This document shows, one piece after another, positions 1,739 through 6,441 of a stretch of DNA of 9,779 nt. The stretch is from a virus (lineage: Duplodnaviria > Heunggongvirae > Uroviricota > Caudoviricetes). The stretch is from the IMG/VR virus record IMGVR_UViG_2740892231_000007. One strand, 5' to 3'. Numbering within the stretch: position 1 is the stretch's first letter; the number at the start of each line of letters is the position of its first letter. The notes under the pieces are model-generated. The model was not told the DNA's origin and ran no database searches. It worked only from the letters and a program-made list of their open reading frames with translations. The position numbers and the translations under genes were made by a program.

Positions 1739-1945
1739 ATGGAAGCAATCAAAAAAGTCATCTTTCGCCAGGAAGTAAAAAAACTTATCCACATCAAGGC
1801 AGACAGCACGCTTCAAAGCATGATCAACGCCGGAGAATTTCCGCAGGGTTTTCGCGTTGGTTTACGCCGTCGCGGATGGTATGAGGAAGACGTAATCGCA
1901 TGGATGAAAGAACGTGAGCAGGAAGCACGCGGAACGGCTGCGTAA
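1739..1945 (+). CDS. alpA: AlpA-family (prophage CP4-57-type) transcriptional regulator / excisionase-like HTH protein
   Basis: 68-aa ORF with AAGGT RBS 8 nt upstream of the ATG. The segment KKLIHIKADSTLQSMINAGEFPQGFRVGLRRRGWYEEDVIAWMKE fits the AlpA/Vis-type HTH pattern as recalled. Position immediately downstream of a P4-type int in the same orientation is typical. Confidence 0.8.
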   Translation: MEAIKKVIFRQEVKKLIHIKADSTLQSMINAGEFPQGFRVGLRRRGWYEEDVIAWMKEREQEARGTAA

Positions 1946-2262
1946 TGGTGTGAGGCATAACACGATGAACATAACAAAAAGCGCCCCGTTGCCGGAACGC
2001 CCTTGTGAACAATTAACCTGCTGCGCCTTATGTGTATGTGATCCCAAACATAAGCACGGGAATGATAGCCGCTATCAGGCTGGTGGGCAATGTAATTACC
2101 CTTTGGGTTCTATGCCGCGTTGCTGTAATTCTTTGCGGATTATTCGCTTTATCCAGGCAGCAAGAGAATCATCGCCGTCATGTTGTTGTGCCTTTTCCAT
2201 CTTTTCCCGTAAGTCAGGATCTAAACGGAACTGGAACGGAGGATTACCACGCCTTTCGTTTT

Positions 2263-2316
2263 TGTGTATTGACACGTTAATTACACCTCATGTAATGTAT
2301 TTATGTGTATTGACAC
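2263..2316 (+). promoter_or_regulatory. Two copies of 13-bp direct repeat TGTGTATTGACAC (2263-2275, 2304-2316), 41 bp apart, with embedded TTGACA
   Basis: Exact 13-bp repeat about four helical turns apart. The first copy contains TTGACA (2269-2274) followed after 16 nt by TGTAAT (2291-2296), a plausible rightward sigma70 promoter. Each copy is followed by a TTACAC motif. Confidence 0.35.
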
Positions 2317-2494
2317 ATTACACACAATCAACACAAAAAGCAAAGCCCGCTGGCGCTATGAACACCAACGGGCTTCTAACCAAACCATTAATTGAGGTAA
2401 CGATTATGGCTATAAAAGAGCATAGCTTACTCTTTATACACACACAAACGCCCCGGAAACAGAATAATCCGTTTCATAGTTCGGTTTTGTGCAC

Positions 2495-2722
2495 TCATCC
2501 TGGCGGTCGGTTTTTGCCGGATTTAAGCCGCCGTGGGTATTTATCGACAAAATCTTCAAGGGCAAATTTTTCTGGTGGCACTAAGCGCGGCGCTGGTGGT
2601 GGTATTTTTGTTCTGGTTAGTTCTTCCTCAAGTCTGGCGCAGGCTTCTGACTGCCTTTGCCGGATGATTTCATCATCTTGCGTTTGCGTGTCTTGTATTG
2701 GTGATAGTGTGTTGTTGGTCAT
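2495..2722 (-). CDS. Hypothetical protein (75 aa), second gene of the leftward unit
   Basis: Minus-strand ORF 57 nt downstream of the RHH gene, with an AGGG RBS-like motif about 7 nt before the ATG. Translation is charged and Pro-rich (MTNNTLSPIQDTQTQDDEIIRQRQSEACARLEEELTRTKIPPPAP...), protein-like, whereas the overlapping plus-strand frame is Cys/Ser-rich. No family recognised. Confidence 0.45.
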   Translation of the reverse strand: MTNNTLSPIQDTQTQDDEIIRQRQSEACARLEEELTRTKIPPPAPRLVPPEKFALEDFVDKYPRRLKSGKNRPPG

Positions 2723-2779
2723 GATACTGCCCTGTAAAGCAATGCGCCGTAGTACCTCACACCACGGCGCTGATAGTGA

Positions 2780-2959
2780 TTATTCTGATTCTTTGGCCTT
2801 GCGGCGCTGGCGGCGTTTGATCTCGCCTCGCATGGCTGTAACGATAAATTGCGCAGTGCTCTCGCCTGTTTCTTTTACTTGCTCCATAGCCTCAACAACT
2901 TCATGCGGGGCGCGAGCCTGTAATTTCTGTGATTTGTTATTGATATGGTCTCTTTCCAT
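2780..2959 (-). CDS. Ribbon-helix-helix (Arc/CopG-like) DNA-binding protein, candidate repressor (59 aa)
   Basis: Not on the ORF track because it is short; found by reverse-complementing 2780-2959. ATG at 2959 with AGGGAAG RBS 5 nt upstream, TAA stop at 2780-2782. Translation: MERDHINNKSQKLQARAPHEVVEAMEQVKETGESTAQFIVTAMRGEIKRRQRRKAKESE. Pattern of short beta-strand (KLQARAP), helix (HEVVEAMEQVKE), G-x-S/T turn (TGES) and second helix (TAQFIVTAMRGEIKRR) fits the RHH fold. Its promoter overlaps palindrome P1. Confidence 0.55.
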   Translation of the reverse strand: MERDHINNKSQKLQARAPHEVVEAMEQVKETGESTAQFIVTAMRGEIKRRQRRKAKESE

Positions 2960-2979
2960 TTCTGCTTCCCTTTGTGATT

Positions 2980-3078
2980 ACTGGAATCCAGTATACACGA
3001 AAAAGACCAAAACAAAACGCTTGAAGTGGATTCCACTTAGTGATTATACTGGAATCCAGTTGAGTGTTTATCACTCAA
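2980..3078. promoter_or_regulatory. Divergent control region: three related perfect palindromes overlapping back-to-back promoters, plus a leader inverted repeat
   Basis: P1 ACTGGA-A-TCCAGT at 2980-2992; P2 AAGTGGA-T-TCCACTT at 3024-3038; P3 ACTGGA-A-TCCAGT at 3048-3060. Half-sites ACTGGA and AGTGGA differ at one base. Centre spacing is 45 and 23 bp. A TATACT -10-like hexamer overlaps P3 on the plus strand (3045-3050, with TTGAAG -35-like at 3021-3026, 18-bp spacer) and overlaps P1 on the minus strand (2990-2995). A further inverted repeat TTGAGTG-TTTAT-CACTCAA (3060-3078) lies in the rightward leader. Confidence 0.55.
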
Positions 3079-3155
3079 TGCAAACGAGGCAGAAAAGGAT
3101 TGCCGTCCTTTCGCAGCCTCTGACCACCAACGATAGCAACAGTATCGAGGTAGCT

Positions 3156-3356
3156 ATGAGAAATCATATCACACACCCGCAAGGGCGGGACCCGCACAAC
3201 CTGAATAAATACATCTGGCGTTTTATCGCCCTGAGCACGGCTAAGCCGCGCGTAATCCACATCGTGGCCACCAGCGAACAGGAAGCCCGTCGGCAATCAC
3301 CGGCTGGCTGCGTGATGGTATTCACTGCCCGTATTCGTCAGGGGGTGGACTTATGA
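3156..3356 (+). CDS. Small protein (66 aa), possibly Icd-like (host cell division inhibitor family); first gene of rightward operon
   Basis: ATG at 3156 preceded by GAGGT RBS; in frame with the C-terminal end of the long 1914-3356 frame but only this terminal part looks protein-like (MRNHITHPQGRDPHNLNKYIWRFIALSTAKPRVIHIVATSEQEARRQSPAGCVMVFTARIRQGVDL). The W.F.A ... hhhhA.SE.EARR ... F.ARI pattern resembles Icd-like proteins of P4-like prophages as recalled; low-certainty recall. Stop overlaps the next start (ATGA). Confidence 0.5.
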   Translation: MRNHITHPQGRDPHNLNKYIWRFIALSTAKPRVIHIVATSEQEARRQSPAGCVMVFTARIRQGVDL

Positions 3357-4274: not shown

Positions 4275-4574
4275 ATGAAACTTAAATATTCTGGCTTAAC
4301 TGCCAGTGGCAACACTCACCCTAAATTTACGCGCGGTGATATTTACCGCGACCAGTACGGCGGTACGGTAATGATTAAGGGCGTGGCGGGACGGTGCGTA
4401 ACTTACCGCCGTGAAGGTTACGAATATGATTGCGTGATGCCTGTTTATCAGTTCCGGCGTGATTTTTCTCTGGTACAGACCGCGCCGCATAACGTGCCCA
4501 CCAGCAACGCCAGGGCACGGGCAAACATCCAGAAGCTGAAAACAATGATTAACGGATTCAGGGGTAAAAAATGA
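4275..4574 (+). CDS. Hypothetical protein (99 aa), translationally coupled to rep
   Basis: GGAGAA RBS 8 nt upstream of ATG 4275; stop overlaps the rep start (ATGA at 4571-4574). No family recognised. Confidence 0.55.
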   Translation: MKLKYSGLTASGNTHPKFTRGDIYRDQYGGTVMIKGVAGRCVTYRREGYEYDCVMPVYQFRRDFSLVQTAPHNVPTSNARARANIQKLKTMINGFRGKK

Positions 4575-5980
4575 AACTGGCACCGAACGTAAAACGATTA
4601 CCGAAAGATAAATACACCGATGCGATTATTTTTGCGGGTATTGATGCTCATTCATTCGCAGAGCATTACATCATTGCACAGGCCAAAAAAGCAGGCGATC
4701 CAGTCCCTCCCGTTTATCTGGGGCGTTATCAGTTAAGCGAACTGGATAACCTCCAGATTGTTGATGATGGGCGATACAGGGCGACGGTGATACGCGCCGG
4801 AAATATTGAAGAGCCGCAGCTGTTAACCATCGCCACGAAACTGGCGAGCGCCGGAGTCCAGGAGGCGCGGCTACTTTCTGAAAATTTCGAATTGCTGGAG
4901 GAATGGAGCGACCAGCTTCCACGGCTTAGGGAGGCATGGGAACGCGGGGAAAGCCTGGTCATGAAAAAAATCCCCCAGCGAAAAACCAAGCTACCAATGA
5001 GCGTTGGATCTACCGGATACGACACACAGCTTGATTACGTGGTAAAGGGGATTATTCCGGCATCGTCGCTTTGCAGCATATACGGGGCGAGCGGTTCCTA
5101 TAAATCATTCCTTGCCGGATCGTGGGCGTGTCACGTTTCCACGGGCCGCCAGTGGGGAGGCCGCAGGGTGGCGCATGGCGCTGTTCTCTATGTGGTTGGT
5201 GAAGGCGGTATAGGCGTTCCGCGTCGTGTAAAAGCCTGGGAGGTTGTGCACGATGAGCAGGTGAAAAATCTGTATCTGGTAAACCGTCCCATCTTTCCGG
5301 CTGCCCCGCTTGATATTGATGAAATGGTTATCGCTGCCAGCCAGGTGGAGCGGGAAACGGGTAAACCTGTTCGCATGATTATTCTGGACACGCTGGCGCG
5401 TTGCTTTGGCGGCAATGATGAAAATGACTCCCGCGACATGGGGGGATTTATCCGTGGTTGTGACGAGCTTAAACGGCGCACAGGGGCTACGGTGCTGGTG
5501 GTTCACCATTCCGGCAAGGATGAAACAAAGGGGGCGCGTGGTTCCAGTGCATTTCGTGCATCACTGGACGCTGAATACCGGATACGCAGGGAGGACGCAG
5601 GAAGCGAAGCGCTGGTTATCTCATGCACCAAAATGAAGGACGCGGAGGAACTCAAAGAGGCTGCCTATGATTTGCGGGTGGTGGAGCTTTTTACCGACGC
5701 TGACGGGGAGTTAATCACGTCGCTGGTGGTGGTGGATAAGCCGCGTCCTCCCGTTGAACTGGAGCGCATCGAAGAGGCTGGCAACAAGACGGAGAATCAT
5801 GCTGCGCTATGGGGATGTATCCGGTCACGCACACAGCACGGCGACAAGTGCACGATCCCGCTGTTACGTGACGATATGAAAAAGCTGGGGTACGAAATGA
5901 AAAACTTCAGCCGCTGGCTACGCAAGCTGGAAAAAGACGGGGTTATTTATATCGACGGTGATGATGTAGGCCCTCTGTAA
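4571..5980 (+). CDS. rep: Replication initiator / helicase-like protein with RecA-like (AAA_25-type) ATPase core and C-terminal DNA-binding-like tail
   Basis: 469-aa ORF. P-loop-like GASGSYKS, Walker-B-like hydrophobic run ending in Asp (RMIILDTLA), and VLVVHHSGKD motif typical of RepA/DnaB-like RecA-fold replication ATPases as recalled. Basic C-terminal segment (MKKLGYEMKNFSRWLRKLEKDGVIYI) is a plausible winged-helix iteron binder. Iteron array begins 1 nt after the stop. Confidence 0.85.
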   Translation: MKLAPNVKRLPKDKYTDAIIFAGIDAHSFAEHYIIAQAKKAGDPVPPVYLGRYQLSELDNLQIVDDGRYRATVIRAGNIEEPQLLTIATKLASAGVQEARLLSENFELLEEWSDQLPRLREAWERGESLVMKKIPQRKTKLPMSVGSTGYDTQLDYVVKGIIPASSLCSIYGASGSYKSFLAGSWACHVSTGRQWGGRRVAHGAVLYVVGEGGIGVPRRVKAWEVVHDEQVKNLYLVNRPIFPAAPLDIDEMVIAASQVERETGKPVRMIILDTLARCFGGNDENDSRDMGGFIRGCDELKRRTGATVLVVHHSGKDETKGARGSSAFRASLDAEYRIRREDAGSEALVISCTKMKDAEELKEAAYDLRVVELFTDADGELITSLVVVDKPRPPVELERIEEAGNKTENHAALWGCIRSRTQHGDKCTIPLLRDDMKKLGYEMKNFSRWLRKLEKDGVIYIDGDDVGPL

Positions 5981-6192: not shown

Positions 6193-6441
6193 ATGCGCAG
6201 AGACAGAACAGAGCCGAAATATAAAGCGTTAGACATGACAGAGCACGCCTTAAAGGTGGCAATCAGGGTAATAGACCGCCACGCGGGGGAAGGATACGCG
6301 AAGGAACATCCCGACCTGATAAGCGCATTCATGACCACGGCGGCGGCAAACTTTGCCACGCTGACAGAACGGGAGATTGCCGAAGCGGAACAGGTAACAA
6401 CCATCAACGTAAAAACCGGAGAGTCAGGCGATGATACATGA
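6193..6441 (+). CDS. Hypothetical small protein (about 82 aa; start uncertain among GTG 6166, ATG 6172, ATG 6193)
   Basis: ORF overlapping the last iterons at its 5' end. ATG 6193 has a GAGGAG motif 11 nt upstream. Stop overlaps the next gene by 11 nt. No family recognised. Confidence 0.45.
   Translation: MRRDRTEPKYKALDMTEHALKVAIRVIDRHAGEGYAKEHPDLISAFMTTAAANFATLTEREIAEAEQVTTINVKTGESGDDT

Follow-up and report, generated by a model that had tools for sequence, protein, structure and literature searches.

A YlcI/YnfO-type ribbon-helix-helix protein as candidate repressor in the alpA-to-icd region of an enterobacterial phage-inducible chromosomal island

The ylcI-icd control region

The 9,779-nucleotide viral sequence considered here (IMG/VR record IMGVR_UViG_2740892231_000007, Caudoviricetes; "the window" denotes this whole stretch) is an island of ~10 kb with the gene content of a Gram-negative phage-inducible chromosomal island (PICI), and our subject is the region from which its replication operon is read. 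A leftward gene for a 59-aa protein (2780..2959, minus strand) is separated by 196 bp from the icd-like gene for a 66-aa protein (3156..3356, plus strand; NCBIfam NF033153, E 2.6e-19). The latter is the first annotated gene of a rightward operon that ends in a replication gene, that of a RepA-like helicase (AAA_25; 4571..5980, plus strand; Pfam PF13481, E 3e-42, with which the RefSeq annotation of a near-identical island concurs). It is probable, in our judgment, that the 59-aa gene encodes a ribbon-helix-helix (RHH) repressor of the YlcI/YnfO family, that three palindromes in the intergenic region are its operators, and that the cassette so formed is embedded in an open frame running from alpA to the icd/kil-like gene.

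The three palindromes lie inside 82 bp and share the core TGGA(A/T)TCCA, of which the exact form has no further copies in the 9.8-kb window. They are perfect and have near-identical half-sites, as was claimed in an earlier note on this DNA, which placed them between a leftward RHH-like gene and the rightward rep operon. The first predicted operator, O1 (TACTGGAATCCAGTA, 2979..2993), is a 7-1-7 palindrome that overlaps the -10 hexamer and start region of the leftward promoter, PL. The second, O2 (AAGTGGATTCCACTT, 3024..3038), is likewise 7-1-7, with its central base flipped relative to O1 and O3; it fills the spacer of the rightward promoter, PR, and abuts or overlaps the -35 hexamer. The third, O3 (ACTGGAATCCAGT, 3048..3060), is a 6-1-6 palindrome overlapping the PR -10 hexamer and start region. 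A promoter scan gives the PR hexamers as TTGAAG (3021..3026, plus strand) and TATACT (3045..3050, plus strand), with an 18-bp spacing, the latter being TATAGT, TACGAT or TAATGT in other loci. The PL -10 hexamer, TATACT (2990..2995, minus strand), is kept as TATACT, TATAAT or TATTCT beside O1 in related loci. The earlier note had also described one TATACT-palindrome unit used in mirror orientation at both promoters, and rightly so: the mirrored arms (2980-2995 and 3045-3060, 16 nt each) are 94% complementary, and their TATACT hexamers are the -10 elements of PL and PR. A Shine-Dalgarno (SD)-like AAGGGAAG (2965..2972, minus strand) stands 5 nt ahead of the ylcI ATG and has a GGAG-type equivalent in related loci. 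A further promoter-like site is found on the ylcI strand at 3043-3070 (minus; TAAACA-16-TATAAT, 10/12 matches), its -10 overlapping that of PR back to back; it is apparently not conserved elsewhere.

Short palindromes are common, and three more of the same size occur elsewhere in the window (six 6-1-6 palindromes versus 2.7 expected), so one might ask if the cluster arose by chance, or is purely structural and devoid of any regulatory role. A cluster of three 6-1-6 palindromes within 100 bp, however, appeared in only 1 of 1000 dinucleotide-preserving shuffles, and the conserved position and concerted change of the sites across about ten genera, described below, already contradict this explanation, to which we give almost no credence.

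The description of the 59-aa gene as RHH-like is also borne out. The NCBIfam model NF041551 (YlcI/YnfO) matches the protein with 72.3 bits against a curated cutoff of 30, an identical protein, WP_000439004.1, is annotated YlcI/YnfO in RefSeq, and among the PHROGs it falls in family 949, listed with function unknown. An N-terminal β-strand is followed by two helices, with a likeness to solved RHH proteins, and the AlphaFold2 model has a predicted local distance difference test (pLDDT) value of 86. An alignment of 41 sequences displays an invariant N-x-K-S...R-x-P strand, which in the window protein runs K9-SQKLQARA-P18, and a G-E-S/T turn between helix A and helix B, with G32 nearly invariant, E33 invariant and position 34 either S or T. 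A G-x-S/T/N turn between these helices is typical of RHH proteins. Judged by its sequence, then, the 59-aa open reading frame (ORF) is a real member of this family. The family is narrow, a search of 1.84 billion proteins giving 91 representatives at E <= 0.001; the 108 close homologues come from Escherichia, Salmonella, Klebsiella, Serratia, Yersinia, Xenorhabdus, Pectobacterium, Proteus and other genera. Pfam returned only a sub-threshold PSK_trans_fac match for the protein, a family-profile sequence search of solved structures gave nothing meaningful, and tblastn of YlcI against 50,697 phage genomes gave no match, the ORF of vB_KppS-Ant discussed below being too diverged and having been found by reading the locus.

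A small RHH protein beside palindromes might instead be the antitoxin of a type II toxin-antitoxin pair, with the 75-aa gene downstream or another neighbour as toxin and with the palindromes serving only conditional autoregulation. The toxin is what is wanting here. Across 27 loci, no conserved same-strand partner follows ylcI, and many loci have none at all; the 75-aa ORF has no family match, and the C-terminus of the 59-aa protein is a basic tail only, with no toxin-binding extension. Moreover, the divergent promoter carries two of the three sites, and autoregulation has no need of these. With no conserved, adjacent, co-transcribed toxin among the 27 loci, a toxin-antitoxin module is rejected, and we regard this explanation of the locus as very unlikely.

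Related loci and the covariation of operator and β-strand

For comparison, 46 homologue-encoding loci were fetched, one genome per species, together with three other E. coli islands, and the main counts are over 45 loci from about ten genera. Nearly all of these loci have a common layout. The ylcI start is followed after ~20 nt by site 1, which abuts a conserved CAGTATAC (TATACT on the ylcI strand); then come an A/T-rich spacer, TTGAnn at position 62, site 2 directly behind it, a hexamer resembling a -10, and site 3, from which a structured leader leads to the icd-like start. In almost every one of the 45 loci, the distance from the ylcI start to O1 is 21-33 nt, and O1 abuts the conserved -10. 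Each of the 42 loci analysed for the TTGAnn hexamer has it at position 61-65 (nearly always 62), with O2 directly after it and O3 another 22-36 bp beyond O2 and sometimes inverted. The 59-aa frame, too, is conserved in homologous islands, with its start codon, SD and -10 kept; the earlier note had named a lack of such conservation as something that would speak against its translation.

While the 11-nt core varies among loci, it is identical at all three sites of any one locus; examples are GTGGCTGACAC, GTGCGATTCAC, CTGGGTGCCAG, GTGGGCCACAC, GTGTATTTCAC and TGTCCGACAC. A three-copy 11-mer family of this kind is present in 32 of 42 regions and was matched by none of 20 shuffles per locus. About ten cores are seen, among them GGAATCC, GGCTGAC, GCGATTC, GGGTGCC, GGGCCAC, GTATTTC, GTCCGAC and GGAGCAC. 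In general the site has the pseudo-symmetric form (G/C)TG-N5-CA(C/G), asymmetric at its centre, and may stand in either orientation; site 3 is inverted in some loci, and site 2 of the window is inverted by its central base. The perfect palindromes of the earlier note are thus real in the window and fail as a general rule: most relatives are pseudo-symmetric, and perfection is peculiar to the window allele. Because the three sites change in concert, they would appear to be read by a locus-specific factor.

The adjacent RHH protein is the best candidate for this factor, as the operator core covaries with its β-strand. Distances between strands, taken over a 12-mer, correlate with distances between operators (r = 0.83, Mantel p < 0.0005), and the partial correlation is 0.66 when the remainder of the protein is controlled for and 0.76 when the adjoining non-operator spacer is. 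Residues 12 and 14 of the strand, which by prediction point toward the DNA, are K and Q where the core is GGAATCC, as in the window, K and E where it is GGCTGAC, Q and N with GCGATTC, K and S with GGGTGCC, M and T with GTATTTC, and S or A followed by K with GGGCCAC. The pairing of NNKSQQLNARFP with GCGATTC is common to E. coli O157, Citrobacter, Pectobacterium, Dickeya, Proteus and Morganella. This covariation of residues 12 and 14 with the operator core also offers indirect support for an RHH homodimer whose paired strands would enter the major groove.

It may be asked whether the repeats, as real protein sites, could be read by another protein: AlpA, the arm domain of the integrase, the Icd-like protein or a host factor. 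Among regulators of these islands, AlpA alone has been established by experiment (PMC6092414), and short repeats are indeed bound by proteins of the AlpA/Xis type and by the arm domains of integrases (PMC10111431). Operator type, however, follows neither AlpA nor the Icd-like protein, and both were rejected as specificity partners. Identical AlpA proteins occur with different operators and different AlpA proteins with identical operators; Xenorhabdus islands with nearly identical AlpA have three operator types, and two Proteus islands (L018 and L037) have the same AlpA and different operators. What operator type does follow, after control for linkage, is the β-strand of the adjacent RHH protein, and the sites are located on promoter elements and not at att. 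As for a host factor, a single genome may hold up to four operator types, as that of Xenorhabdus innexi does, and the reader of the sites is then not a host protein. Taken together, we think it unlikely that any of these other proteins is the reader. The proposal in the earlier note of a dimeric RHH binder that represses the rep operon and autoregulates its own gene, by comparison, gains strong comparative support from the placement of the sites, from their concerted change and from covariation with the strand and not with AlpA or Icd.

Two further observations suggest that protein and sites travel as one unit. The window and the O157 island at cspD-clpS are ~97% identical in the icd-like gene and the 3' end of ylcI; between them, the N-terminal part of ylcI and the operator cores have been replaced, with the promoter hexamers retained. 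This mosaic is the pattern expected of an immunity region. Furthermore, islands that reside together in one genome are always of different type (four in X. innexi, three in X. mauleonii and two each in three other genomes), for which random assignment gives P = 0.006. By these comparative signs, the ylcI region is probably a swappable repressor/operator "immunity" cassette.

A long open frame antisense to ylcI

The whole of this control region lies within a stop-free frame of 480 codons (1914..3356, plus strand), resembling the long form of the P4 eta gene. Being in frame with the icd-like gene, it spans the leader, both promoters and the three predicted operators, passes through ylcI and the 75-aa ORF on their antisense strand, and takes in a second cassette described below. 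Directly 5' of it is the alpA-like gene for a helix-turn-helix (HTH)/excisionase-type regulator (1739..1945, plus strand; Pfam Phage_AlpA 17.8 bits, under the cutoff of 21; PHROG 66/2790 excisionase match, E 1e-7), and the likely start of the frame is ATG 1965, with GAGG 9 nt upstream and 20 nt past the alpA stop. Corresponding frames extend over 428 codons in EcCICFT073, over 232 codons in the O157 island, beginning 10 nt past alpA, and over 370 codons in an island embedded in its helper; the frame opens less than 100 nt from the alpA stop in about half of the loci.

Summed over the 45 loci, the stops in the three frames antisense to ylcI number 195, 141 and 1, and those over the 185-nt intergenic region 248, 235 and 23. 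In the icd frame, the intergenic region is stop-free in 34 of 45 loci, as against 0 of 45 for each other frame and 0.9 in shuffles, and 33 of 45 loci have no stop in the long frame overall. Synonymous codon choice within ylcI is affected as well. A ylcI codon that precedes a CAN or TAN codon ends in T in 0 of 248 cases versus 23% elsewhere, and only 2 antisense stops are observed where 39 +/- 5 would be expected from randomised synonymous codons. Such avoidance of antisense stops argues that the long frame is kept open by selection acting on the synonymous sites of the repressor gene. If so, the nesting of a repressor gene antisense within the long form of a gene under its control would be a rare case of constrained dual coding.

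The arrangement found here, in which a long ORF beside an alpA homologue contains an early promoter and, in frame at its 3' end, a short ORF, is that of the nested eta/kil genes of satellite P4. The Icd-like protein belongs to PHROG 1743, which it shares with the P4 kil/eta coding sequence (CDS), and on this family evidence it is a homologue of P4 Kil.

Given a frame of this length, one could suppose that the rightward ORF is the real gene, that ylcI is unexpressed, and that the leftward ORF and the palindromes are by-products of coding or of RNA structure. The long frame is, after all, under selection to stay open, and in one database record the long CDS alone is annotated. A test of ylcI coding by codon position is uninformative, as the long antisense frame shares its wobble positions and the pattern cannot separate the strands. 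However, the alignment of the 59-aa protein has the pattern typical of RHH proteins, its fold is predicted with confidence and its family is curated, and the start codon, SD and -10 of ylcI are conserved, whereas the translation of the long frame across this stretch is low-complexity and unconserved. An unexpressed ylcI would also leave the concerted change of three sites with the β-strand unexplained. We therefore consider this supposition highly improbable, and retain the reading of ylcI as an expressed repressor gene.

Other carriers of the cassette

The prototype island EcCICFT073, which has been induced experimentally (PMC6092414), holds the cassette as well, with sites GTGGGGGACAG, GTGGGCCACAC and GTGGGCCACAC on a strong TTGACG...TATAGT promoter. 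In our extract of this island (L050; NC_004431.1, 1377930-1388654), the ylcI and icd-like genes are at 10474-10653 and 10853-11053. Their locus tags, C_RS30120 and C_RS30125, are high-numbered amid C_RS069xx neighbours, which suggests, and does not prove, that both were annotated later than the flanking genes.

An identical window-type YlcI is found in the helper-embedded island mentioned above (L052; NZ_CP076237.1, 13061-25531), a satellite that splits the large-terminase gene of an Stx1a prophage in E. coli O157:H7. The protease/capsid fusion gene of this satellite resembles that of the enclosing prophage.

A third carrier is an induced and packaged element of 16.5 kb deposited as "Escherichia phage vB_KppS-Ant" (L053; LR881103.1). 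Here an unannotated 67-aa YlcI-like ORF (8586-8789, minus strand) lies antisense inside the annotated 324-aa long-form CDS, which also contains the matching operators GTGTACCCCCAC and GTGGGGGTGCAC. The sequence of this YlcI-like protein is intermediate between the satellite type and K-12 YlcI.

Enterobacterial PICIs have been described with no repressor, as the earlier note had it: a global repressor in Gram-negative PICIs is called "unclear", and the contrast with the Gram-positive repressor Stl "a mystery" (PMC6092414). The paper on capsid-forming PICIs (cf-PICIs) makes no mention of a repressor. A 2023 survey divides the islands into integration, Bro, replication and late zones, the genes being largely in one direction and some islands having P4-like immunity RNAs (PMC10111431), and a 2026 survey lists "YlcI/YnfO" and "Icd" as accessory genes only. 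We found no description of a YlcI/YnfO module, of a PICI repressor of this kind or of a satellite RHH protein in the open-access literature, nor any reported function for YlcI or YnfO. The cassette thus provides a concrete, testable candidate repressor with mapped operators for Gram-negative islands, including EcCICFT073, the Stx1-prophage island of O157:H7 and islands in at least ten enterobacterial genera. Its matched variants would amount to a naturally occurring collection of orthogonal RHH repressor-operator pairs whose specificity code can be read, and they may both explain how several islands coexist in one genome and offer a way to engineer or silence satellites used as delivery vehicles.

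Proposed mode of action

The simplest reading is that one YlcI dimer binds each site. At O2, in the PR spacer by the -35, and at O3, over the PR -10 and start, YlcI would exclude RNA polymerase and so hold the operon from icd/kil-like to rep silent while the island is integrated; at O1, over the PL -10 and start, the outcome would be negative autoregulation. Because PR matches the promoter consensus well (TTGAAG-18-TATACT in the window, TTGACG-N-TATAGT in EcCICFT073), its silence would need a repressor. We infer repression and autoregulation from the positions of the sites, together with what is known of RHH proteins. Specificity would reside in β-strand residues 12 and 14 (K and Q here), reading the central bases of (G/C)TG-N5-CA(C/G), and protein and sites would be exchanged together between islands as an immunity-type cassette, allowing several islands to share a cell with no cross-repression. 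The earlier note went further and spoke of a bistable switch. This part is not supported: the analysis turned up no second regulator acting in opposition, and a repressor with nothing beyond negative autoregulation is monostable.

A protein that binds these sites need not repress, and YlcI might activate PR, or might serve the excised replicon as a centromere-binding protein of the ParG/omega kind or in plasmid copy control. A site in the promoter spacer and sites at the -10/+1 are positions of repression, however, not of activation; the island has no ParA/ParB-type partner, and there are three dispersed sites only and no contiguous array. We find a role of this other sort scarcely credible and continue with YlcI as repressor.

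AlpA is described as an auto-activating inducer (PMC6092414), and repression by YlcI has to be fitted to this. On the model of P4, and with odds that we put somewhat below even, AlpA-driven upstream transcription may, upon helper induction, be translated through the long frame, convergent to ylcI and opposing its expression. The same transcript would melt the leader hairpins and enter the replication genes regardless of a repressed PR. Read-through of this kind would silence the repressor by convergent transcription and at the same time shield the transcript from termination. Under such an override, the terms "AlpA-activated" and "repressor-operator" would be reconciled. The earlier note had suggested a control logic different from that of AlpA; probably there is no such alternative, since a cassette inside an alpA-proximal long frame, in a layout homologous to P4 eta/kil, suggests layering, and AlpA control probably coexists with repression.

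Extending this to other islands, we offer tentatively, and at somewhat less than an even chance, the proposal that a hidden dual-coding immunity cassette is present in enterobacterial PICIs including EcCICFT073, with quiescence through YlcI, induction through AlpA read-through and about ten immunity groups. The ~ten operator/β-strand types would then be satellite immunity groups that govern coexistence or cross-repression.

Several points weigh against the repressor reading and its extension. All of the evidence is computational: the sites, the protein fold and family, positional conservation, covariation and open-frame selection were obtained by computation, whereas binding, repression, override and translation of the long frame are deduced from them. 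PR and PL are consensus matches only, and PL has a weak -35 match in an A/T-rich upstream region. Many of the 45 loci are closely related, in particular the Pectobacterium and Xenorhabdus groups, and the effective sample is about ten specificity types. The O2-O3 spacing varies (22, 23, 25 or 36 bp), which argues against a single fixed cooperative geometry. In 12 of 45 loci the long frame contains 1-3 stops, so that the long form would be lost or dispensable in some lineages. Since AlpA alone induces EcCICFT073 (PMC6092414), the repressor would not be the sole switch; and no anti-repressor or inducing signal was found.

Comparison with known systems

The closest parallel in layout is the immunity region of P4. 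The order there is an alpA homologue (vis/orf88), a long ORF with an internal promoter and a short, in-frame toxic end, small ORFs and a replication gene, and the P4 gene order vis(orf88) - eta/kil - epsilon - ... - alpha (primase) matches that of the island. The long frame begins at or near the alpA stop, in parallel with eta, which follows orf88. Within the P4 eta gene lie both the nested kil gene and the early promoter, and when eta is translated from the late promoter upstream, termination is prevented (PMC10111431). The nested arrangement links PICI regulation mechanistically to that of this satellite. There are two differences. P4 immunity arises from pairing of the CI RNA with seqA/seqC, whereas the island gave no C4 match and an isrK match of only 10.9 bits against a gathering score of 50, and on this ground is not a P4-type RNA immunity system. 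(In the control region of the window, Rfam gave no family at E <= 1, nor at E <= 10 on a sub-region, including C4, isrK and SymR.) P4 also lacks a YlcI homologue, while here a protein repressor gene and its putative operators are embedded antisense in the long frame. Icd-like domains are known as well from the immI region of phage P1 (c4 RNA - icd - ant); although such a domain is present here, there is no c4 RNA upstream of the icd-like gene and no ant gene in the operon, and membership in the P1 immI type is rejected.

For the protein, the nearest precedents in arrangement are Arc and Mnt of the P22 immI region, likewise small RHH proteins placed between divergent promoters. Arc acts at Pant/Pmnt, repressing an outward operon and its own transcription. 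It does so as a tetramer on a single 21-bp operator, unlike the three separated 11-15-bp sites here, and the 59-aa protein has no detectable sequence relationship to Arc. The omega repressor of inc18 plasmids (pSM19035) differs in that it needs contiguous heptads, whereas the sites here are 22-45 bp apart, each at a promoter element.

Among chromosomal islands, the Stl/Rpr repressors of Gram-positive PICIs, the pathogenicity islands of Staphylococcus aureus (SaPIs), are comparable in role to what is predicted for YlcI, acting at divergent promoters to silence a replication/packaging operon (PMC6092414). Stl proteins, by contrast, are large HTH proteins, have int on the repressor side and are lifted by helper-phage proteins; in the window the predicted repressor is a 59-aa RHH protein, with int and alpA upstream on the other strand.

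Finally, YlcI of the DLP12 prophage and YnfO of the Qin prophage of E. coli K-12 are the namesakes of the curated family NF041551/DUF3950, and the ORF of vB_KppS-Ant bridges the satellite and K-12 sequence types. The similarity of K-12 YlcI is remote (pairwise E 0.66), and it lies beside cos and nohD of a lambdoid prophage with no icd-like partner; too distant and in a different context, it was rejected as a model. The K-12 gene (6252-6446 of our DLP12 extract, L051) adjoins the cos site and nohD of this cryptic prophage and is divergent from the terminase genes.

Seen against these systems, the island combines an RHH repressor-operator module with the nested eta/kil region of P4, and what appears unusual in it is the swappable immunity types and the antisense dual-coding nesting.

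Leader, second cassette and remaining features of the island

Downstream of O3, a fourth inverted repeat, absent from the earlier note, is found at 3061..3079 (plus strand; TTGAGTG-TTTAT-CACTCAA, 7-5-7), and could either fold as a hairpin at the 5' end of the PR transcript or serve as one more site for a protein; many loci, though not all, have CCTTGA..TCAAGG-type equivalents. It is followed by the structured leader (3086..3151, plus strand), which consists of a hairpin at 3086-3120, the conserved motif CUCUGACCACCAAC and a hairpin at 3126-3151 that ends in the SD GAGG (3147-3150). The predicted fold of the PR leader has three hairpins (3059-3079, 3086-3120 and 3126-3151) and a z-score of -3.15. 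In leaders of the commoner kind, which we call type A (16 loci), 9 of 18 predicted pairs have compensatory changes, and a conserved UAACCAC pairs through its CCA with the UGG in the AUGGCU start. The strand opposite type-A leaders gives SymR-like matches that reach 40.4 bits at most, against a gathering score of 61, and ends in a hairpin and T-run, most clearly at window 2376->2342 followed by GCTTTTTGTG. An antisense RNA over the ribosome-binding site of the kil/icd-like gene is thus possible on sequence grounds. The regions concerned are 3075-3175 and 2342-2376 of the window (both minus strand), 2807-2878 in locus L023 and 2809-2880 in L031; from the leader of the window itself Rfam gave no match.

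Where the short product of the long frame starts is uncertain. PGAP places the icd-like start at 3156, where the SD is better. The in-frame ATG 3078, on the other hand, would give a 92-aa Icd-like protein, and the 93-position PHROG 6196 profile matches from that methionine, with 180 bits versus 137 bits for the 66-aa form.

The second cassette (2096..2420), partly decayed, lies in the same long frame; like the structured leader and the long frame itself, it is absent from the earlier note. It comprises a leftward ORF for an Arc-like RHH protein (2275->2096; PHROG 228, E 4e-6), two GTGTATTGACAC repeats (2264-2275 and 2305-2316) and a type-A kil/icd leader (2338-2405) followed by an in-frame ATG at 2406, from which the ORF now continues through the main cassette. 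In Rfam it gave only a 19-bit match resembling the R1162 antisense RNA (plus strand). The region has the look of a cassette that entered the kil gene of a second one and left the reading frame intact.

In its overall content, the island has what characterizes a Gram-negative PICI: an integrase gene (1-1242), alpA, a replication gene, small size, its own att and an absence of lysis and tail genes, with the caveats that AlpA scores under its Pfam cutoff, as given above, and that the replication protein is a helicase and not a primase. A ClpP-protease/capsid fusion gene occupies 7321-9240. The near-identical island in E. coli O22:H8, also ~10 kb, with one protease/capsid fusion gene and with tail and lysis genes absent, adjoins tRNA-Pro on the yejM side, its integrase ~220 bp from the tRNA gene.

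Three small leftward ORFs are found in the island. The one downstream of ylcI (2495-2722, minus strand) encodes 75 aa, its counterpart in CFT073 57 aa (L050, 10243-10416); the two have in common a short FALE(D/Q)F motif, have no family match and are missing from many islands. Between int and alpA, the Rfam RNA motif RF02996 (int-alpA), which was not found in the window itself, scores above its gathering threshold in several of the related islands (L002, 5860-5929; L012, 5893-5961; L006, 5519-5587).

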